Virus genome (UHGV): UHGV-0141098
DNA: 19,773 nucleotides
Source of the DNA: a virus
Direction: 5' to 3' (one strand)
The notes below the pieces were generated by a model, which was not told where the DNA came from, ran no database searches, and worked only from the letters and a program-made list of their open reading frames with translations. This document shows, piece after piece, positions 719 to 18,893 of the stretch. Both the position numbers and the translations under genes were made by a program. The number at the start of each line of letters is the position of its first letter. Positions within the stretch are counted from its first letter, which is position 1.

Positions 719-2203
719 TCATTCATTAAGCCATGCCAGAGCCTCATCAACCTGCGCTTCGTCTTCGACGCTAAGCACTTCATCCTGGGGAACATAATCC
801 GCCAGCATAGCGAAACAATATGTATCCCAATGGTCTGGTGAGTGCAGGTTGAGTTTTTTCTTCATATCCTCCTTACTCATCACCTTCCATTGACCTGCGG
901 AGTTAATCCCTACAGGGATTTTCGACGCTTCCTCAATAGTTTCATTACCCTTATCCAGTCTCATACGACCAGATTTTACGGCCTCTGCGGCTTGAACGTT
1001 GGCATAAGCACGTTTATCAAAGTACAGGCTCTTATCTTCACGGCTATGCATCTTTTTACCCCAGCGTATACGCTGTACGGTAATACCATAATACTCGTAC
1101 ATCAGATCCGCTGTTGCTTTACCCAGGCCATCTCCATCTATCGCTATGGTGATATTGGGGAATCGCTCAGGATTACATTCTGCGAAAATTTTGGCGGCAA
1201 GCTGCGTTTCTGTAACGTCTGTGTATTCCAGCATTCGATAGTTGATTACACGGCGTTTATTTCGCTGGCCGGACACCATCATGATATTGATAACTGACTT
1301 ATCCCGTCCCGTACCACCAGCAACGTCCACACATGCAAGCCAGCCCCATCCTTTGGCAATCTTAACTTTCCGCCGCGTTGCACGTTCAACCTCATCACGT
1401 CCAAGAAGGAAGCCGTCCTGTGATTTAGGGAATAGGCCGCGCACCTTAATCATGTACATAGGGTTATCACGCCCGCCGTACTCCGCCAGCTTCATTTTGA
1501 TAAATTCTGGCGTTACCAGCGGTGATTCCTCACTGTTAAGCGTGATCGCCGTATAAACGCCATCTGGGTTACCAGGACGCTTGGCCAGTTTATGGTGAGT
1601 ATCGTAGAAATAGCCGCTTGGGCGTGTAGGCTGTGACAGTAATAAGATGCGGTTATCCTGTCCGGTAAGAGCACCGGTGATGATACCGAAAGCTCTATCA
1701 CTGACACCGGAGGCTTCATCGATAATATACAGAAGATGATCTGCGTGTTCACCGGCGAGAGCTTCTTCACTTCCCAGACGAAAGCCCTTCGGTACTACAG
1801 TCCATACACCTTTACCAGTAACCTCATAGAAAGCGGTTTCTGTCAGAACAAAATAATCAGCAAGCCATGGAAAACGGCTGGTGGCAGTAGCCCAGTTTAT
1901 CTTGATGTACTTGAATATACCGGTCATTACCTGCTGAATTTTGTTCGCAACGATAATGGCGCGGGCACCGGGATACATGATTATGAACAACATGATCATG
2001 ATAGAAGTCATGTCTGATTTCCCGGTACCGTGACCAGACGAAACAGATGTCTTGCTACCCTGTTCCTGCACAGACTCAATAATCAGATCCTGCTGCCAGG
2101 TAGGTGTTTTGCCGAACAAAACATCAGCGGCCGCAATCCAGTCATAACGATATAGCGCCACCAGCTCGCGCCAACGTGGATCCGTTACGCAACTTCTGGC
2201 CAT
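719..2203 (-). CDS. pacB: P1-type pacase (terminase) large subunit PacB, 494 aa
   Basis: 494-aa ORF with a P-loop-like GHGTGKS segment. Size and position (directly after a 397-aa pacA that contains a pac site) match P1 PacB as recalled. Start overlaps the pacA stop by 1 nt. Confidence 0.8.
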
Positions 2204-3396
2204 TAATCATCATCCCCGTATAGCTTGCGGGTGACTTCTTCGTCTTCCTCCTCGTCTTCGTCCAGGTCTTGTTCCAGCCATGGGTCGTTTGATACACCTT
2301 CAGTATCAACATCCCCATAACCGCCTGTATCAACGATATCGGCGATTTCTTCCCTACGCTGCTCAATCCACAATGCGGCATCGGCGCGGCGGTTGGCGGC
2401 CCGTTCTCGCGCAACTTTGTCCAGATCTTCAAGAGAAGGGCCACCGACGGCTGTTTGCCTTTCCTCATCATCGGTATTGGTCTTAGGAGCACGCAGATCG
2501 GCTTTGATTTGCTCCAGCATCAGGGGCGGCACTTTCCCGCCATGCGCCTCGATGAATTCAGCTGCTTCCAGCACTGACCAGTTATTTTCACGCTTTCGTT
2601 CGTATGCCAGCTTAACAATGCCAGCTTGCCCCATAGACAAAGCGTGCTTTTCCGCCTCCCGGCTTTCTTTTCGATAGTTATTCAGGATGCTGTAAATGGT
2701 GTTGATCAGGCTGCTTATCTGCGCGGAACAGCTGTTTAGCATGCTCGCGATACGGTATTCAGGCGGAGTACCTTCATCATCGTCTTTTTGCTGATCGCGC
2801 ATTTCCTGCACCAGGCGAATACACGTATCCCGGGCGTTCTCCAGCATAAGGAGATGAGAAAGAGACTTTTCCAGAAGAGTGGTTTCCAGAACATCAGCTC
2901 CGGAACGACGCAACATAGCGCGCGCGGCCTTCCACGCTTCAACGTTATCTATCAGGTAATCGCCAGCTTCGAATTCAAAGCGTTCACCATCATCATCCAG
3001 GGTGTCGCGTTCCAGGCGATCACGTAAGGTACGGTGGGCGCGGGTGATCACGTCATGATCATCAGAACGATCATTTATGCGCTTATTTTGGCGCTTAGCG
3101 TTCTCGACTGCGGCACTGACAACAGCATTAACTCTTTGTTTTTCAGCCGTTTCAGCCACAATGTGATCACCTGCACGTTGATCATTAGCGTGATCAATGA
3201 TCATGCTTTTTAGTGGTTTCCTGACAGGCTTATTTGGCTTACGGCTATCCGCTGTTCCGGTGTCTTCTTTGAATGCACGGAGATAACGACGTGCGGTGTT
3301 TGGGTTGAGATTAAACTCGGCGGCATATTGTGCGATGGTGTAACCACCATCTCGCGCCAGGCGAGCAAAATTCTTCTTGTGATCGTCCCAGGTCAC
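2203..3396 (-). CDS. pacA: P1-type pacase subunit PacA (pac-site recognition), 397 aa
   Basis: 397-aa ORF with GTG start and AGGAAG Shine-Dalgarno. N-terminal HTH-like segment, acidic C-terminus. Contains the hexamer-cluster pac site internally, as in P1 pacA. Confidence 0.8.
3017..3203. other. P1-type pac packaging site (two clusters of TGATCA hexamers carrying Dam GATC sites)
   Basis: GATC-containing hexamers at 3017-3022, 3045-3050, 3056-3061, 3068-3073 and at 3164-3169, 3179-3184, 3191-3196, 3198-3203, with a hexamer-free segment of about 90 bp between the clusters. This matches the known P1 pac architecture of hexamer clusters flanking the cleavage region inside pacA. Confidence 0.75.
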
Positions 3397-3482
3397 TTAT
3401 GCTTCCTTTCGTATAAAACTCTTTTTGACGCGAGGGTAACGAAAGTCACATGTCAAAAGGCCCGGAACGGGCAAGCAATCAA

Positions 3483-3935
3483 TCAGATACGTGCGGATGT
3501 GGCATTACCGTAATGACGGTGCTGACGGACCACCTTATTGAAAAGTTGACGCGCCATTACCCAAGGCTGGTGCTCCCGGCGTTCCTTTTCGTCCTGCGTC
3601 ATATAGAGTTCGTTCTGGAGTTTTTCATCAAACCGGCGCGGAGCGCGGCTGCGGCGAAAGAATTCAGGATTCAGAGAGTGGATCTGAAATCTACGTGGGC
3701 GTGTACTGTCATCAATCAAAACAGACGAATACTTAGACACAGCGATAGCCTTTAAGCGCAGATAAACATCGCGCTTATCGACATCCAGATGCGGGTATTC
3801 CTTTTCAAGAATTGCTGCGAGTTCTTTCGCTGATAGAAGAGATTTAGTGCGGATCATGTAATCCGCAATCTCGTACGATGTTATTCGTGAGTGATTTATT
3901 TCCATGAAGTGGCGTCCCTGCCAGTTAAGTAACAT
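3483..3935 (-). CDS. lpa: late promoter activator Lpa (gp10)-like protein, 150 aa
   Basis: 150-aa ORF directly upstream of pacA. AGGTGA Shine-Dalgarno 4 nt before the ATG. A C1-type operator and -35/-10-like elements lie upstream at 3936..4022. Name assigned from position, size and operator context rather than recognised sequence. Confidence 0.6.
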   Translation of the reverse strand: MLLNWQGRHFMEINHSRITSYEIADYMIRTKSLLSAKELAAILEKEYPHLDVDKRDVYLRLKAIAVSKYSSVLIDDSTRPRRFQIHSLNPEFFRRSRAPRRFDEKLQNELYMTQDEKERREHQPWVMARQLFNKVVRQHRHYGNATSARI

Positions 3936-4005
3936 CCTGTCACCTACTGATTAGCCCATGTCAACTAATCAACGTGGAATATAATACCCTCAACTAAAGA
4001 AATAG

Positions 4006-4022
4006 CAATACATTAGAGCAAT
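4006..4022 (-). promoter_or_regulatory. C1-repressor-type operator upstream of lpa
   Basis: Minus strand reads ATTGCTCTAATGTATTG (core ATTGCTCTAAT exact). Followed by TTGCTA -35-like and TATTAT -10-like elements before the lpa Shine-Dalgarno. Begins 1 nt after the stop of the upstream 347-aa gene. Confidence 0.55.
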
Positions 4023-4023
4023 T

Positions 4024-5067
4024 TTATCTAACACTCGACGAATGACTTGTGATAACGCCGACTCCAAGCGCGTAATCAAAGAACAATCGTTGATGCATCG
4101 CCAGCCTACCGTGCGTCTTCTCCCAATTATCGCGGTCACGCTCAATATCACGCTGGCATGACTGGCACAGAGGAATTGCGTAAATGTCATGCGCGCATAA
4201 TCGACTATGACGAACGATATAAGGCGTAATGTGAGCGCCAGCTCCCGCCGCTCCGCACCCACAGCATGGACGGGAAGCAACAAAGTCCATGTACTCAGGT
4301 AATTTTAGCGATTGCAGTTTTGGTATTTTGAAATGCGCCATGCCAGGGTCGGAGTCAACATCCACAGGGCATACTTTTGCACGCATCGGCGCGGCGCGTT
4401 CTTCCATCATCTGAACATATGCTGTAGCGCGATCGTCATACGGGCGAATATCCGCCTCTTTCAGAGGTCCGCTATCCTGCGTTGCGGCTTTCATCTTATT
4501 TATTGATATACGGCAAACTTCTTCCGGCATCAGGTGCATCATGTTGCACATGAAAGCCCACCAGCACAGTTCCTGAATACTTAAATCATGGCCATCTGAA
4601 AGCCCCATTTCCTGACGGGCGACATCCAGTATCCAGTTAACGCGATTATTGTGCAGCGTTTCTTTCAGCTCATTAAAACCACGCATCCGGTAATGGTTAT
4701 CGTGATGCCAGCACAACAACACCGCGCTATTGTCTCGTTCAGCGTGGACAATATGGTTGTCACACCAACTACGATCTGCGGCCTGGCATTGCCCCTCTTT
4801 CCTGCGCAACCACGCCACCAGCGAGTCAATTCCACCAATACGGCGAAACAGTTCATCGCTGTTAAAAAACGGCTGCAACGCCTCATTTGTTGCCATAGTT
4901 TGCTCGGAAACAACGAGGCCGTCGTCCATGTGCTCGATTAACTCACGCGGCACCGGCTCCATAATAAATTTACGGCCAGCCTCCACCAGCTTTCTGACTT
5001 CCTGATCCACTTTGAATGTGGCGACGCCAAGCTCTTTTTGTACAAAGGGAGTAATAATGGCTTTCAC
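4024..5067 (-). CDS. hypothetical protein, 347 aa, at the position of P1 pdcB (post-doc); C-terminal Cys/His-rich motif
   Basis: GTG start with AAGGTG Shine-Dalgarno. C-terminal segment [38 protein letters not shown] resembles an HNH/zinc-binding motif. Identity with pdcB is positional only. Confidence 0.55.
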
Positions 5068-5094
5068 ATCACACCTTTCATCACTGATTGGGCT

Positions 5095-5274
5095 TTATCT
5101 GCTGCCCGGCATTCTCTGTTTAAGCACAACCATTTCCTGACGGCATAACACAGCAATAGCGGTCCTGGCACCAATTTGCTTACTAACCAGGTATTGCTTT
5201 ACCTTGCGGCGACTCACGCCATCAAGAAGCATCTTTAACGCTTCACGGGACAATTTGTTGTATTTGCGTGCCAT
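5095..5274 (-). CDS. small basic protein, 59 aa, at the position of P1 pdcA
   Basis: Internal ATG at 5274 of track ORF 5095..5295, preceded by GGAG and lying 4 nt after the doc stop. The track start at 5295 would overlap doc. Lys/Arg-rich, possibly DNA-binding. Confidence 0.4.
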   Translation of the reverse strand: MARKYNKLSREALKMLLDGVSRRKVKQYLVSKQIGARTAIAVLCRQEMVVLKQRMPGSR

Positions 5275-5278
5275 TAAT

Positions 5279-5659
5279 CTACTCCGCAGAACCATACAAT
5301 CTACGTAACGTGGCGGCGACAGAAGATACAGATATCTCGCCAGTCGCAGCGCCTACAGTAAGGTCTGCCAGTTCAGGTGAATCAAATACCTGCACCCCGT
5401 TACGGCGTAGAAATAGCAGCGCACTGTTTAGCGCGGTACGCTTATTGGCATCATTGAATATATGCCCTCTCGCCGTAGCCACCAGGTAGGTGGCGGAGAC
5501 TTCGAAAAGGTCGGTGATCTCTTCGTAGGCAACTCTGGCCTGAACTCTCCCGATAATGGCCTCTGCCCTACCCGGATCTGACATTCCCGACAGGCCGCCG
5601 TAGCGGCTTATATTCGCATCATGAAGCGCAATAAGTTCTTCCGGTGATATATGCCTCAT
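5279..5659 (-). CDS. doc: Doc toxin (Fic-fold, death-on-curing), 126 aa
   Basis: Protein [22 protein letters not shown]...[12 protein letters not shown]... matches P1 Doc almost residue for residue as recalled, including the Fic-like HxFx(D/N)ANKR motif. Coupled to phd by a 1-nt overlap. Confidence 0.95.
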
Positions 5660-5880
5660 TATCGGTTAACCAGTTCCTTGTTGGTGGAGTCCAGGGTGTC
5701 AAACAGGGATGCAAATTCAGCATCCAGCGCCGCTTTTTTGTAGGCTTCGAAAGTAGCCTTGCTGACAATTACTGCTGGCTCACGGCCTCTGCGGGTGATT
5801 TCAACCTCTTCCCCGGCCTCAACATTGTTGAGCACTTCAGAAAGGTTGCCGCGCGCGGTACGGAAGTTAATGGATTGCAT
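5659..5880 (-). CDS. phd: Phd antitoxin (prevents host death), 73 aa
   Basis: 73-aa protein [49 protein letters not shown]... matches P1 Phd as recalled. Sits directly upstream of doc. Confidence 0.95.
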
Positions 5881-6056: not shown

Positions 6057-7615
6057 ATGAAAATGACAAGTATTCAACAACGTGCAGAGCTTCATCGTCA
6101 AATCTGGCAAATTGCTAACGATGTCAGGGGTTCGGTCGATGGATGGGATTTTAAGCAATACGTTCTGGGCGCACTTTTCTACCGTTTTATCAGCGAAAAT
6201 TTTTCCAGCTATATTGAAGCCGGTGATGACAGTATCTGTTATGCGAAACTGGATGACAGCGTAATTACTGATGACATTAAAGACGATGCCATCAAAACTA
6301 AAGGCTACTTCATCTACCCCAGTCAGCTTTTCTGCAACGTAGCGGCGAAAGCAAATACTAATGACAGACTGAATGCAGATTTAAACAGCATCTTCGTTGC
6401 TATCGAAAGTTCTGCTTACGGTTATCCTTCAGAAGCTGACATCAAAGGTTTGTTTGCTGATTTCGATACCACCAGTAACCGCCTGGGTAACACCGTTAAA
6501 GATAAAAATGCCCGCCTGGCTGCGGTTCTGAAAGGGGTTGAAGGGTTAAAACTTGGTGACTTCAACGAACATCAGATTGACCTGTTCGGTGATGCCTATG
6601 AGTTCCTGATTTCTAACTATGCGGCAAATGCCGGTAAGTCAGGCGGCGAGTTCTTTACACCGCAGCACGTCTCCAAGCTGATTGCACAACTGGCTATGCA
6701 CGGGCAGACCAGCGTTAACAAAATCTACGACCCGGCAGCGGGTTCCGGCTCACTGTTGTTGCAGGCGAAAAAACAGTTTGATAACCACATCATCGAAGAA
6801 GGCTTTTTCGGTCAGGAAATCAACCATACGACCTATAACCTGGCGCGTATGAACATGTTTTTGCACAATATCAACTACGACAAGTTTGATATCAAGCTGG
6901 GTAATACACTGACTGAGCCGCACTTCAGAGATGAAAAACCGTTTGACGCCATCGTATCTAACCCACCGTATTCGGTGAAATGGATTGGCAGCGATGACCC
7001 GACGCTGATTAACGATGAGCGTTTTGCCCCGGCTGGCGTTCTGGCCCCCAAATCCAAAGCTGACTTTGCGTTTGTACTACATGCGCTGAACTATCTTTCG
7101 GCCAAAGGTCGTGCTGCGATTGTCTGCTTCCCGGGTATTTTTTACCGTGGCGGCGCAGAGCAGAAAATCCGTCAGTATCTGGTCGATAATAACTATGTCG
7201 AAACCGTAATTTCACTGGCACCGAACCTGTTCTTTGGCACCACCATTGCAGTAAACATTCTGGTGCTGTCTAAGCATAAAACGGATACCAAAGTTCAGTT
7301 TATTGACGCCAGCGAACTGTTCAAAAAAGAGACTAACAACAATATCCTGACCGACGCCCATATCGAACAGATTATGCAGGTATTTGCCAGCAAGGAAGAT
7401 GTTGCTCATCTGGCGAAATCTGTCGCGTTTGAAGCCGTTGTAGCGAATGACTATAACCTGTCGGTGAGCAGCTATGTGGAAGCGAAAGATACTCGCGAAA
7501 TTATCGATATCGCTGAGTTGAATGCAGAGCTGAAAACCACGGTCAGCAAAATCGACCAGTTACGCCAAGACATTGATGCGATCGTGGCTAGAATTGAAGG
7601 CAGAGAGGTACAGGC

Positions 7616-7619
<4 letters not shown>
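6057..7619 (+). CDS. hsdM: Type I restriction-modification N6-adenine DNA methyltransferase subunit HsdM, 520 aa
   Basis: AdoMet-binding motif [10 protein letters not shown] and catalytic NPPY motif (SNPPYSVKW). N-terminus [17 protein letters not shown] matches EcoR124-family HsdM as recalled. Stop overlaps the hsdS start (ATGA). Confidence 0.95.
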
Positions 7620-8836
<1,217 letters not shown>

Positions 8837-8957: not shown

Positions 8958-11900
8958 ATGACTCATCAAACACACACCATTGCTGAATCCAATAACTATA
9001 TCGTCCTTGATAAGTACATCAAAGCTAAGCAAACAAGCGACAGCTACCAGAGCGAATCGGACCTGGAACGTGAACTGATTCAGGACCTGCGGAATCAGGG
9101 TTATGAATTTATTTCCGTAAAATCACAGTCGGCAATGCTGTCCAATGTTCGGGAACAGCTTCAGAACCTCAATGGTGTGGTGTTTAATGACAGCGAGTGG
9201 CGGCGTTTCACGGAGCAGTATCTGGATAACCCGAGCGATGGCATTCTGGATAAGACCCGTAAAATCCATATCGACTATATTTGCGACTTTATTTTTGATG
9301 ACGAGCGTCTTGAGAACATCTATTTGATAGATAAAAAGAATCTCATGCGCAATAAGGTGCAGATTATCCAGCAGTTTGAACAGGCGGGTTCTCACGCTAA
9401 CCGTTATGACGTAACTATCCTGGTTAATGGCTTACCGCTGGTGCAAATCGAACTGAAAAAACGCGGCGTGGCGATTCGTGAGGCTTTCAACCAGATACAT
9501 CGTTACAGTAAAGAGAGTTTTAACAGCGAAAATTCCCTGTTTAAGTATCTGCAGCTGTTCGTCATTTCCAACGGCACTGATACCCGTTATTTTGCCAACA
9601 CGACAAAGCGCGATAAAAACAGTTTTGACTTCACCATGAATTGGGCGAAATCAGACAACACGCTGATTAAAGACCTCAAAGACTTTACCGCTACCTTTTT
9701 CCAGAAACATACTCTGCTGAATGTTCTGGTGAACTACAGCGTTTTTGACAGTAGTCAGACGCTACTGGTGATGCGACCGTACCAGATTGCCGCCACCGAG
9801 CGCATTCTGTGGAAAATTAAGAGTTCCTTTACAGCGAAGAACTGGTCAAAACCGGAAAGCGGTGGGTATATCTGGCACACTACCGGTTCTGGTAAAACCC
9901 TCACCAGCTTTAAAGCCGCGCGTCTGGCAACAGAGCTGGACTTTATTGATAAAGTCTTCTTTGTGGTCGACAGGAAAGACCTCGATTACCAGACCATGAA
10001 GGAATATCAGCGTTTTTCGCCAGACAGCGTCAACGGCTCGGAAAATACCGCAGGCCTTAAACGAAATCTGGATAAGGACGATAACAAAATTATCGTCACT
10101 ACTATTCAGAAACTCAATAACCTGATGAAAGCAGAAAGCGATCTGCCTGTATATAATCAGCAAGTGGTGTTTATATTTGATGAATGCCACCGCAGCCAGT
10201 TTGGAGAAGCGCAGAAAAACCTGAAGAAGAAATTCAAACGCTATTATCAGTTTGGTTTTACCGGCACCCCTATTTTCCCGGAAAACGCCTTAGGCTCAGA
10301 AACAACCGCCAGCGTATTTGGTCGTGAATTGCATTCGTATGTAATTACCGATGCGATTCGTGACGAAAAAGTGCTCAAATTCAAGGTGGACTACAACGAT
10401 GTGCGGCCACAGTTTAAGTCTTTAGAGACAGAAACTGACGAGAAAAAACTGAGTGCGGCTGAAAATCAGCAGGCGTTTCTTCATCCCATGCGTATTCAGG
10501 AAATCACGCAATATATTCTGAATAATTTCCGCCAGAAAACCCACCGTACCTTCCCTGGCTCAAAAGGTTTTAATGCTATGTTGGCAGTGAGCAGCGTGGA
10601 TGCCGCGAAAGCCTATTATGCGACGTTTAAACGGTTACAAGAAGAAGCCGCTAATAAATCGGCTACCTATAAACCGCTGCGTATTGCGACAATCTTCTCC
10701 TTTGCCGCCAATGAAGAACAAAATGCCATTGGTGAAATTTCCGATGAAACTTTTGATACCAGCGCAATGGACAGCAGTGCTAAAGAGTTTCTGGATGCTG
10801 CAATTCGTGAGTATAACAGCTATTTTAAAACTAACTTCAGCACCGACAGTAACGGTTTTCAGAACTACTATCGTGATTTAGCCCAACGGGTTAAAAATCA
10901 GGATATCGATCTGTTAATTGTCGTGGGAATGTTTTTAACCGGCTTCGATGCTCCAACATTAAACACGCTATTCGTCGATAAAAACTTGCGTTTTCACGGC
11001 CTGATGCAGGCATTTTCCCGCACCAACCGCATTTATGACGCTACTAAAACCTTCGGTAATATTGTCACGTTCCGGGATCTGGAACGCTCAACCATTGATG
11101 CCATAACGCTGTTTGGTGACAAAAATACCAAAAATGTGGTTTTAGAAAAGAGTTATGCAGAGTATATGGAAGGCTTTACTGATGCTGCCACTGGTGAAGC
11201 TAAACGCGGCTTCATGACAGTAGTTTCAGAACTGGAACAACGGTTCCCTGACCCTACCAGTATTGAAAGTGAAAAAGAGAAGAAAGACTTCGTTAAACTG
11301 TTTGGCGAATACCTGCGTGCCGAGAACATCCTGCAAAACTATGATGAATTTGCCACGCTAAAAGCCCTGCAACAAATCGATCTTAGCGATCCTGTTGCGG
11401 TAGAAAAATTCAAAGCAGAACATTATGTGGATGATGAAAAGTTCGCTGAATTGCAAACAATTCGTCTCCCTGCTGATCGCAAGATTCAGGATTATCGTTC
11501 TGCCTATAACGATATTCGCGACTGGCAGCGCCGTGAGAAAGAAGCTGAGAAAAAAGAGAAATCAACCACTGACTGGGATGACGTGGTTTTTGAGGTCGAT
11601 TTGCTGAAGTCTCAGGAAATAAACCTGGATTATATCCTTGGACTGATTTTCGAACACAACAGACAAAATAAAGGCAAGGGCGAAATGATCGAAGAGGTCA
11701 AACGCTTAATTCGTTCAAGCCTGGGGAACCGGGCGAAAGAGGGCCTGGTGGTCGATTTTATTCAGCAAACGAACCTGGATGATTTACCAGACAAAGCCAG
11801 TATCATTGAGGCATTCTTTACGTTTGCTCAACGCGAACAGCAACGTGAAGCAGAAGCATTGATAAAAGAAGAAAATCTCAATGAAGATGCAGCAAAACGC

Positions 11901-12074
11901 TATATTCGCACGTCTTTAAAACGCGAATACGCCACCGAAAATGGCACAGAATTAAACGAAACATTACCAAAACTTAGTCCGTTGAATCCGCAATATAAAA
12001 CGAAAAAACAGGCAGTTTTCCAGAAAATCGTCTCGTTTATTGAGAAGTTTAAAGGCGTAGGCGGAAAAATATAG
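8958..12074 (+). CDS. hsdR: Type I restriction endonuclease/translocase subunit HsdR, 1038 aa (EcoR124I-like)
   Basis: PD-(D/E)xK nuclease residues D151, E165, K167 ([20 protein letters not shown]). SF2 helicase motifs [12 protein letters not shown] and TGTP. Length of 1038 aa and N-terminus [14 protein letters not shown] match EcoR124I HsdR as recalled. Confidence 0.95.
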
Positions 12075-13870: not shown

Positions 13871-14146
13871 GTGGCTTCTGTTTCTATCAGCTGTCCCTCC
13901 TGTTCAGCTACTGAAGGCGTGGTGCGTAACGGTAAAAGTACTGCCGGACATCAGCGCTATCTCTGCTCTCACTGCCGTAAAACATGGCAGCTACAGTTCA
14001 CTTACACCGCTTCTCAACCCGGTACGCATCAGAAAATCATTGATATGGCCATGAATGGCGTCGGATGTCGCGCCAGTGCACGCATTATGGGCGTTGGCCT
14101 CAACACGGTTTTACGTCACTTAAAAAACTCAGGCCGCAGTCGGTAA
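13871..14146 (+). CDS. insA: IS1 InsA (transposition inhibitor; N-terminal part of InsAB' transposase), 91 aa
   Basis: Protein [51 protein letters not shown]... matches IS1 InsA as recalled. Confidence 0.9.
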
Positions 14147-14568
14147 CCTCGCGCATACAACCGGGCAGTGATGTGATTGTCTGCGCTGAAATGGACGAAC
14201 AGTGGGGCTACGTCGGTGCTAAATCACGCCAGCGCTGGTTGTTTTACGCGTATGACAGGATACGGAGGACGGTTGTGGCGCACGTATTCGGTGAACGCAC
14301 GCTGGCCACGCTGGAGCGTCTTCCGGGCCTGCTGTCGGCCTTTGAGGTCGTGGTATGGATGACGGATGGCTGGCCGCTTTATGAATCACGCCTGAAGGGA
14401 GAACTGCACGTTATCAGCAAGCGATATACGCAGCGCATTGAGCGGCATAACCTGAATCTGAGGCAGCATCTGGCAAGGCTGGGCAGGAAGTCACTGTCGT
14501 TCTCAAAATCGGTGGAGCTGCATGACAAAGTCATCGGGCATTATCTGAACATAAAACACTATCAGTAA
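14065..14568 (+). CDS. insB: IS1 insB reading frame (expressed as InsAB' by -1 frameshift at the A6C motif)
   Basis: Frame encodes ...[26 protein letters not shown]...[15 protein letters not shown]...KHYQ, typical of IS1 InsB. The slippery motif AAAAAAC is intact at 14122-14128. Confidence 0.85.
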
Positions 14569-17982: not shown

Positions 17983-18228
17983 TTAAGCAGCATACAACCA
18001 CTTGTCGCCGTTCAATACATGCTCAATAGCCTCACCCTTTTTAAGGCTTATGTATTCCAGGATGGCGGTTATCGCTTGTTCTGCACCATACGCAAGAACG
18101 ACGTAGTAACCTTCCTCTCTAAGCCTGCGCATCCAGGCGATCTGCTCTTTCGTCGGGGCTTTACCATTTGGTTCTTTAAGCTCAATTCGCATGCCGTGAT
18201 AAATACCGCATGCTTTATCGAGACTCAT
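17983..18228 (-). CDS. VRR-NUC-like small nuclease-fold protein, 81 aa
   Basis: Segment D..(11)..IELKEPNGKAPTKEQIAWMRRLREEGYYV resembles the VRR-NUC D...ExK core. Its ATG overlaps the stop of the truncated IS110-family ORF. Confidence 0.45.
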   Translation of the reverse strand: MSLDKACGIYHGMRIELKEPNGKAPTKEQIAWMRRLREEGYYVVLAYGAEQAITAILEYISLKKGEAIEHVLNGDKWLYAA

Positions 18229-18893
18229 GTCCGGACATCCAGATCAGCGATTTCGTCATGTAACTCGAGATAGCGTCGGGCAAGGGACTTTAATGAAATG
18301 CGATAAACGTTGGTTACATTGCGGTATTCACTGGCATCAGGTCTCCAGGAACCCAGGGTCCTGATGAGCTGCATGCGCGTCATATTTCTGAGCTGTTCAC
18401 GTAATTCATCCGGGGCAGAGATAATATTTGAATGGATAATCTGGAGAGCGACTCTGCGGGCTGATATTGCTGTTTTTCGGCAAGTTTTTAATACCCGCAG
18501 GGACTCAATCATGCCATCACGCGTTTTGGGAGTAACTGTCCTGATGCCTGAGAATGCTGCATGAGCGGCACATTCAGCATCAATTGTGTCACTTTTACCC
18601 CGTTTGCGTCGCTCCATCCGGTCTGGAGCAGTCACCTCAAGAACTTCTAACCCGGCGTTCTGAAAATAACGAAGCAAACCGGAACCATAGGTACCTGTGC
18701 ACTCAACACCAATTCGCTTTAATGTCCCAAACGAGGTCATCCATGCCAGCATCTGCCGGTAACCTTGTCGTGTTGTGGAGAAATACTGAGTCCCAAGGAC
18801 TTTATTGTTCTGATCTACGACAGCGGCAACGTGCAAATCTTTATGTGTATCCACGCCACCCACAACGGCAGCTTTGGTAACTTTATCAACCAT
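18225..18893 (-). pseudogene. IS110-family transposase, N-terminal DEDD domain plus linker only (222 aa, C-terminal domain missing)
   Basis: N-terminal pattern VGGVDTHKDLHVA ... ECTGTYGSGL ... KSDTIDAECAAHAA matches the IS110/IS1111 DEDD domain. The ORF stops before the expected C-terminal domain. Confidence 0.65.

Follow-up and report, generated by a model that had tools for sequence, protein, structure and literature searches.

PdcB of the P1 clade: an HNH-type zinc-knuckle module with a degenerate active site

Is the 347-residue protein encoded between the doc toxin gene and the packaging genes of a P1-like phage-plasmid a nuclease? This question is raised by UHGV-0141098, a virus genome of 19,773 nucleotides (the whole stretch is called the window below). 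Positions 3400-5700 of the window are 98-98.7% identical to P1, P7, RCS47 and relatives, and E. coli plasmids match the entire window with identities of up to 99.8%. The protein is 96.8% identical to P1 PdcB, and the DNA of its gene region is 98% identical to P1, P7 and RCS47, where it is annotated as pdcB. The P1 record gives the function of PdcB as unknown. The RefSeq phage records NC_005856.1, NC_050152.1, NC_031129.1 and NC_042128.1 call pdcB or its orthologues "HNH endonuclease" where the GenBank originals have "unknown function", and the label was apparently derived via PHROG 96, which PdcB matches with E=8e-128. Our main result is a correction of this annotation. For the P1 clade the label is probably overstated, since this clade has lost the catalytic residues but keeps the zinc scaffold under selection. 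In addition, we found a second conserved, putative zinc module, in the protein's N-terminal part, that is annotated in no database. The biology at stake is that of an accessory, dispensable gene; P1 serves as a workhorse phage and resistance genes are spread by P1-like phage-plasmids, which gives an accurate annotation of pdcB practical value.

Family membership and fold of the C-terminal module

PdcB belongs to the YdfU/DUF968 family. The Pfam profile DUF968 (PF06147) matched residues 161-337 over its full length (1-171 of 171) with E=1.8e-49 and 168.5 bits, above the gathering cut-off of 27.8. An exhaustive profile search yielded 812 relatives, the full-length matches spanning positions 1-340 of PdcB, and with tblastn 171 of 175 phage records covered at least 80% of the query. 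Canonical DUF968 members, which bear the HNH motif, are collinear with the whole of PdcB (25-38% identity over 97-99% of its length) and have the same two-module architecture, i.e., an N-terminal Cys/His module and a C-terminal zinc-knuckle beta-beta-alpha module. YdfU from the E. coli Qin prophage and the lambdoid "YdfU family protein" are examples, with about 25-30% identity to PdcB over 97-99% of the length. A search of NCBIfam with PdcB returned no family. In five relatives (P0053, P0099, P0102, P0062 and P0035) YdfU-type N-terminal halves are joined at arbitrary points to tail-tip (J), tail-collar/fibre, glycine-rich or portal domains; these fusions are probably deletion scars of defective prophages or assembly chimeras and not true architectures.

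An earlier note on this DNA, made from the letters alone, had drawn attention to a Cys/His-rich motif within positions 4024-4200, in the last ~50 residues of the protein. The motif is real and can be read from the translation of the minus strand at 4153-4266, but it was placed and measured wrongly: 4024-4200 encodes only residues 290-347 (LCAHD...SVR*), at 4201-4266, outside that range, one finds the first CxxC pair and "AHITPY", so that the motif extends over the C-terminal 80 residues. The cysteines are conserved in homologues, and the pattern is not a product of chance. In 11 relatives, down to 26% identity, C268, C271, H293, D294, P299 and C301 are invariant and C304 is nearly so. We extended the comparison to 79 canonical relatives and to a set of 20 sequences that appeared to lack the catalytic histidines; the latter comprises 17 P1-type sequences and three misaligned canonical ones (P0106, P0149 and P0150, all of which really carry HH), and counts for the P1 type refer to it. 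Among canonical and P1-type sequences, respectively, C268 occurs in 78/79 and 20/20, C271 in 65/79 and 18/20, D294 in 78/79 and 20/20, and H293 in 57/79 and 18/20. Column 304 is His in 35 and Cys in 28 of the canonical relatives, an interchange that is typical of a metal ligand. The P1 clade retains all four cysteines, Asp294 and the downstream W-E...G signature. As judged from the sequence, one pair of ligands precedes strand beta1 and the other sits at the N-terminus of the helix, the arrangement of the zinc-knuckle subtype, and the C-terminal module would accordingly be predicted to bind zinc.

The fold agrees with this assignment. An AlphaFold2 (AF2) model built from 11 sequences was too weak (predicted local distance difference test score, pLDDT, of 60) and was superseded by one based on an alignment of 96 sequences, with a pLDDT of 90.7. 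It contains strands 280-284 and 297-301 followed by a helix, 302-319, which is the His-Me finger superfamily's beta-hairpin plus alpha-helix. A profile of the C-terminal module aligned with YbcO at E=2.3e-5 in hhalign, with the motif in register. YbcO (DUF1364; PDB 3g27), a putative nuclease of the DLP12 prophage, is a single module of 96 residues with a beta1 histidine (AH) and the sequence CSACH; PdcB differs from it by the absence of both histidines and by 250 additional residues. Searches of PDB sequences with full-length PdcB and with the 11-sequence profile gave no matches or only chance-level ones. The C-terminal profile touched the HNH domain of IscB and YbcO in register with E-values of 0.6-0.9, which is below threshold, and these two alignments served for register only and not as evidence of homology. 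Foldseek found nothing significant in the PDB, the weak matches being HNH enzymes, and a structure search of BFVD gave significant matches to stand-alone DUF968 proteins. The HNH-like spacing that the earlier note had remarked upon was thus borne out by the DUF968 match, the YbcO alignment and the AF2 model, and the data support that the C-terminal region is homologous to nucleases of the HNH/His-Me finger type carrying a CxxC...CxxC zinc knuckle. This amounts to the rediscovery of an annotated domain. DUF968 is already a recognised His-Me finger family and its C-terminus has been described as a zinc-finger HNH motif (PMC4118853). P1 itself encodes another HNH nuclease, Ref (PDB 3plw), which is classified within the superfamily as a RecA-dependent nuclease (PMC5714182). 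PdcB has 9% identity and no detectable sequence relationship with Ref and, unlike Ref, lacks the His-Me catalytic residues.

Catalytic positions and their loss in the P1 lineage

In the active site of His-Me finger enzymes the general base is a His that closes beta1 and hardly ever varies, and the first helix turn supplies a metal ligand, which is Asn or His; often Asp, Glu or His directly precedes the catalytic His and a polar residue is found at position +4 or +8 on the helix (PMC5714182). The 79 canonical relatives share the motif C..CG..AD-DPHH(L/I)IGHG.GGMG.KAHD...PLCR.(C/H)H.ELH. In PdcB numbering, its histidines occupy column 283 (metal-assisting residue, His in 78/79), column 284 (general base, 77/79), column 305 (metal ligand in the first helix turn, 75/79) and column 309 (polar +4 residue, 74/79). 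All four are substituted in the P1 type: column 283 by Tyr or Phe, column 284 by Leu, Ile or Met (Ile in the window), column 305 by Gln (16/20) and column 309 by Glu, Ala, Ser, Val or Arg (Glu in the window). Put as motifs, PdcB has TPYI for DPHH, lacks the G.GGMG.K loop, has C..CQ for C..(C/H)H and a variable +4 residue for ELH. The substitutions were confirmed independently by a MAFFT alignment. Column 284 aligns with His32 of YbcO and with the second His of the "HH" in the HNH domain of IscB, and in the AF2 model beta1 ends at Ile284. PdcB therefore has neither a histidine general base at the end of beta1 nor an Asn/His metal ligand in the first helix turn. Of the auxiliary slots, 283 holds Tyr in place of His (Phe in two clusters) and 309 varies within the clade; Asp311 is conserved.

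The surrounding sequence has changed as well. In P1-type sequences the loop is deleted (a gap of seven columns), and three to four residues that are absent from 74/79 canonical relatives are inserted before beta1. His279, the "AH" histidine that had been taken for the His of an HNH site, lies in this insertion and is the wrong one, being Arg, Gln, Asn or absent in close relatives. Canonical members keep their histidines even where zinc ligands are gone (C271 is present in 65 and C301 in 69 of 79); the P1 clade shows the opposite, zinc ligands kept and histidines gone. None of the HNH-type families of Pfam matched PdcB even at E<=1, and canonical members weakly touch HNHc_6. With all four catalytic-type positions substituted in the P1 clade, the working nuclease domain envisaged in the earlier note is not supported, and PdcB is probably not a nuclease, or at any rate none that works by the canonical mechanism.

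The module is under purifying selection and is not decaying. Comparison of the window with P1 gave a dN/dS (ratio of nonsynonymous to synonymous substitution rates) of 0.127 for the whole of pdcB and 0.07 for residues 256-340. Against the orthologue from JK004 (66% identical), the proportions of nonsynonymous and synonymous differences in the C-terminal module, pN and pS, were 0.18 and 0.77, the latter saturated. In the literature pdcB is counted with the best-conserved genes that P1-like phage-plasmids carry (PMC9603915).

Genomic context separates the two types. In lambdoid phages the YdfU-family gene, annotated as ydfU in many Stx (Shiga toxin) and lambdoid phages, lies in the stretch that separates the replication genes from Q. 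Citrobacter phage Chris1 has it beginning inside the stop codon of a gene for a RusA resolvase, with a Q-like gene next in order; in DLP12 ybcO likewise abuts rusA. We classified the context at 14 loci besides the window. The canonical motif occurred at 7/7 loci with rusA or Q as neighbours, and the short loop at 6/6 loci with lpa (and pacA) downstream, as well as in the window itself, where pdcB lies upstream of lpa-pacAB. Linkage to lpa was kept at all loci of the lpa set and the order pdcB-lpa-pacA is conserved in divergent P1-like elements. Within the lpa set, a deep subclade of 37-38% identity, represented by a locus from Candidatus Pantoea alvi (L009, 3501-4490) and one from a metagenome (L004, 376-1365), has the shortened loop, yet retains E-H in beta1 and CxxC(H/Y)KQH. 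It has the sequence features of an intermediate state and may still be catalytically competent. In the P1/JK004 clade all four histidines are gone. Since the deep lpa-linked subclade keeps E-H, the loss is a derived event within the P1 lineage.

The N-terminal module and possible roles of PdcB

The second module, C94-Q-x6-C102...C119-W-H-H122-D-N, confirmed by translation of the DNA, forms another beta-beta-alpha unit in the AF2 model (strands 106-111 and 114-119, helix 120-129). Over 97 sequences C119 is invariant, C94 is present in 91, W120 and D123 in 87 each, N124 in 77 and H121 in 74. Position 102 is Cys in 46 and His in 45, position 122 His in 59 and Cys in 38, so that the consensus reads C-Q-x6-(C/H)...C-W-H-(H/C)-D-N. 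This conservation is at least equal to that of the C-terminal module, and the N-terminal module is fully intact in the P1 clade. Because Cys and His interchange at two positions, as in metal ligands, it is probably a second zinc site. Pfam has no annotation for it and it has no relative among PDB sequences. An origin by internal duplication, which would make it homologous to the C-terminal module, was rejected (hhalign probability 0.07%). The "CQ-x7-C" spacing that it shares with YbcO/DUF1364 did not establish a relationship either (hhalign probability 0.2%, no match among PDB sequences).

Published experiments show that pdcB is dispensable and assign it no function. Upon knock-down by CRISPR interference the efficiency of plating was 0.68 for pdcB and below 1.2e-7 for lpa, pacA and pacB, and a deletion survey agrees that pdcB is dispensable (PMC10695390). 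Phages with a pdcB::kan insertion were recovered (PMC10067587) and pdcB::kan lysogens are stable (PMC10999674). One preprint reports that expression changed transiently in an hfq host.

Taking these data together, we consider it reasonably probable (about 0.6) that PdcB of the P1 clade is an inactivated His-Me finger of lambdoid YdfU-type descent, kept as the zinc-stabilised binding module of a dispensable accessory protein. Lambdoid members of the family retain the complete HNH-type catalytic set, with HH at the end of beta1, a His in the first helix turn and a His at +4; these proteins, encoded beside rusA and Q, are presumed to be recombination or repair nucleases. In the P1 lineage the gene lies immediately upstream of lpa-pacA-pacB, and shortening of the loop between the strands may have been the first change. 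Replacement of the four catalytic-type histidines (by Tyr283, Ile284, Gln305 and Glu309 in the window) would have come next, in the P1/JK004 clade, with the four zinc cysteines and Asp294 kept throughout. The present module would then no longer cut in the His-Me manner and may be retained for binding DNA or a partner, stabilised by zinc. It is the combination of replaced histidines, a kept zinc scaffold and purifying selection from which we infer a non-cutting, binding module. Homology, fold, substitutions, selection and genomic context are shown by the data; zinc binding, the loss of catalysis and the binding role are deduced from them. There are precedents. In the MH1 domain of Smad proteins and the nuclease-like domain of ENPP1-3 the beta-beta-alpha core persists, neither the catalytic His nor a Tyr in its stead is left, and the domains are retained for binding of DNA or substrate or for stability (PMC5714182). 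These are unrelated eukaryotic lineages, and their likeness to PdcB is one of mechanism and not of family; DNA binding by PdcB is putative. A more specific variant, in which PdcB descends from a prophage recombination nuclease, is nuclease-dead and repurposed as a zinc-stabilised protein that binds DNA structures or a partner from host or phage, and in which the N-terminal module is a new functional site of all YdfU proteins that carries the activity, appears rather improbable.

Several observations weigh against an inactivated module and fit an enzyme that still cuts through a non-canonical His-Me site, with Tyr283 (or Tyr296) as nucleophile or base and a metal held by Gln305 together with Asp307, Glu309 or Asp311. 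In PacI a Tyr replaces the catalytic His (PMC5714182), so that Tyr-for-His replacement is on record in the superfamily, and Tyr283 is common in the P1 clade. Tyr283 and Gln305 each occur in 16/20 sequences, Arg310-Asp311 is conserved in the clade, the C-terminal module is under strong purifying selection and the deep P1-like subclade (L009) is still catalytically plausible. Gln305 could in principle ligate a metal, so that this substitution alone is not decisive. However, column 283 is Phe in two clusters, P0007 (146 sequences) and P0022, which a catalytic Tyr would not tolerate; the Tyr of PacI is located in a loop and not in beta1; position 309 varies (E, A, S, V, R); and the loop with the conserved Lys of canonical members is deleted. 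We therefore regard an active enzyme of this kind as unlikely. The chemistry could instead reside in the N-terminal module, where an uncharacterised active or ligand-binding site of all YdfU proteins would be made up of His121, Asp123 and Asn124 beside the zinc ligands, the C-terminal HNH site having become expendable in the P1 lineage. No other part of the family is conserved as well as this module, which is intact in the P1 clade and whose beta-beta-alpha topology places Asp/Asn in the first helix turn. Nevertheless, no conserved residue is found at the end of its beta1 (column 111 is His in 25, Arg in 23 and Tyr in 20 sequences, and Arg in P1), it has no detectable similarity to the C-terminal module, YbcO or any PDB or Pfam entry, and no experiment hints at such chemistry, which makes the proposal improbable.

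From pdcB, pacA/pacB are reached two genes downstream and doc two genes upstream. The earlier note considered a nuclease domain next to the packaging genes and Doc functionally notable, and a canonical HNH nuclease might cooperate either with Doc or with the adjacent packaging enzymes, in the way that HNH proteins assist the terminases of some cos phages. The RefSeq and PHROG labels and the conserved pdcB-lpa-pacA order would be in accordance with this. HNH packaging helpers are known from the cos mechanism: the HNH proteins associated with terminase in cos phages, HK97 gp74 for example, keep their catalytic residues and are required for cos cleavage. They resemble PdcB in that an HNH-fold gene is located close to packaging genes, whereas PdcB has lost the catalytic residues, is separated from pacA by lpa, which has its own C1-controlled promoter, and belongs to a phage that, according to the annotation, packages by headful cutting at pac by PacAB and not at cos. 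A packaging helper would be needed for packaging and plaque formation, but phages with pdcB knocked down or disrupted by an insertion show normal plating and lysogeny while pacA, pacB and lpa are essential; the dispensability of pdcB thus lends no support to a packaging-helper nuclease, and a functional meaning of the adjacency to the packaging genes is not supported. The same holds for Doc. A third component of the addiction module should show conserved linkage to phd/doc, but doc/pdcA was found upstream only at P1-type loci from E. coli (L006 and L007) and was absent in JK004 (L002) and Pantoea (L009), the two divergent loci with upstream sequence that could be probed; proximity to Doc is hence incidental. 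A nuclease linked to packaging or Doc is largely refuted and very improbable. Hardly any weight can be given to the idea that PdcB is simply a DNA-binding regulator of the zinc-ribbon or zinc-finger kind, without relation to nucleases and with an HNH-like spacing by coincidence. The four-Cys CxxC...CxxC pattern and the missing catalytic His would suit it, but PdcB is homologous without interruption, along its entire length, to canonical HNH-bearing DUF968 members, and the zinc ribbon, the alternative offered by the earlier note, was rejected since the second CxxC (301-304) caps the N-terminus of helix 302-319 in the model, as in His-Me fingers, and the structure matches are HNH enzymes. As to origin this explanation is already refuted; a regulatory role would overlap with the inactivated binding module favoured here.

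The locus and the remainder of the window

The coordinates of pdcB, its modules and the neighbouring genes are collected in the table. The GTG start of pdcB is preceded by a Shine-Dalgarno-like AAGGTG at 5072-5077 and is backed by this upstream sequence and by the N-terminus MKA(V/I)ITPF, which is kept in relatives. According to the P1 annotation the promoter of lpa follows right after the pdcB stop codon, and our scan also recovered the Plpa position. Between doc and lpa the promoter and terminator scan gave counts at the level of shuffled sequence, with no convincing terminator between doc and pdcB; co-transcription of pdcB with phd-doc therefore stays an inference.

Table. Coordinates in the window of pdcB, its sequence features and the flanking genes
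Feature	Position	Strand	Description	Basis
pacB	719-2203	minus		open reading frame (ORF) list, P1 annotation
pacA	2203-3396	minus		ORF list, P1 annotation
lpa	3483-3935	minus		ORF list, P1 annotation
pdcB	4024..5067	minus	coding sequence, 347 residues, GTG start; P1 "post-doc" gene B, YdfU/DUF968 family	
DUF968 match	4057..4587	minus	residues 161-337; helical linker and C-terminal His-Me finger	Pfam
C-terminal module	4060..4302	minus	residues about 256-336; beta-beta-alpha (His-Me finger/HNH fold), degenerate active site	
Second zinc-knuckle pair	4153..4167	minus	Cys301-x-x-Cys304, then Gln305 in the slot of the metal-binding His	
His293-Asp294	4186..4191	minus	"HD", equivalent of the structural Asn in H-N-H, kept	
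Strand beta1	4216..4230	minus	ITPYI, residues 280-284; Tyr283/Ile284 in the canonical His-His slots	
First zinc-knuckle pair	4255..4266	minus	Cys268-x-x-Cys271 (CCGC)	
N-terminal Cys/His module	4681..4788	minus	residues 94-129; second beta-beta-alpha unit, C94-Q-x6-C102...C119-W-H-H122-D-N	
pdcA	5095-5295	minus		ORF list, P1 annotation
doc	5279-5659	minus		ORF list, P1 annotation
phd	5659-5880	minus		ORF list, P1 annotation

Immediately past phd, at the place taken in P1 by humD, lxr and hot, the plus strand of the window encodes a complete type I restriction-modification system consisting of hsdM (6057-7619), hsdS (7616-8836) and hsdR (8958-12074), the product of the latter carrying EcoR124_C and related domains. 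Given its position, hsdMSR represents swapped cargo in a region already known to vary among P1-like phage-plasmids. In hsdS, positions 8114-8153 contain 3.3 copies of a perfect 12-bp tandem repeat (CTTACCGCTGAG) that encodes three TAEL units in the middle part of HsdS. In enzymes of the EcoR124 family, the number of copies of this repeat determines how long the spacer in the recognition sequence is. The P1-like backbone is further interrupted by an IS1 transposase gene on the plus strand within 13871-14568 (Pfam DDE_Tnp_IS1, ORF 14065-14568) and by a transposase domain of the IS110 family on the minus strand at 18225-18893.
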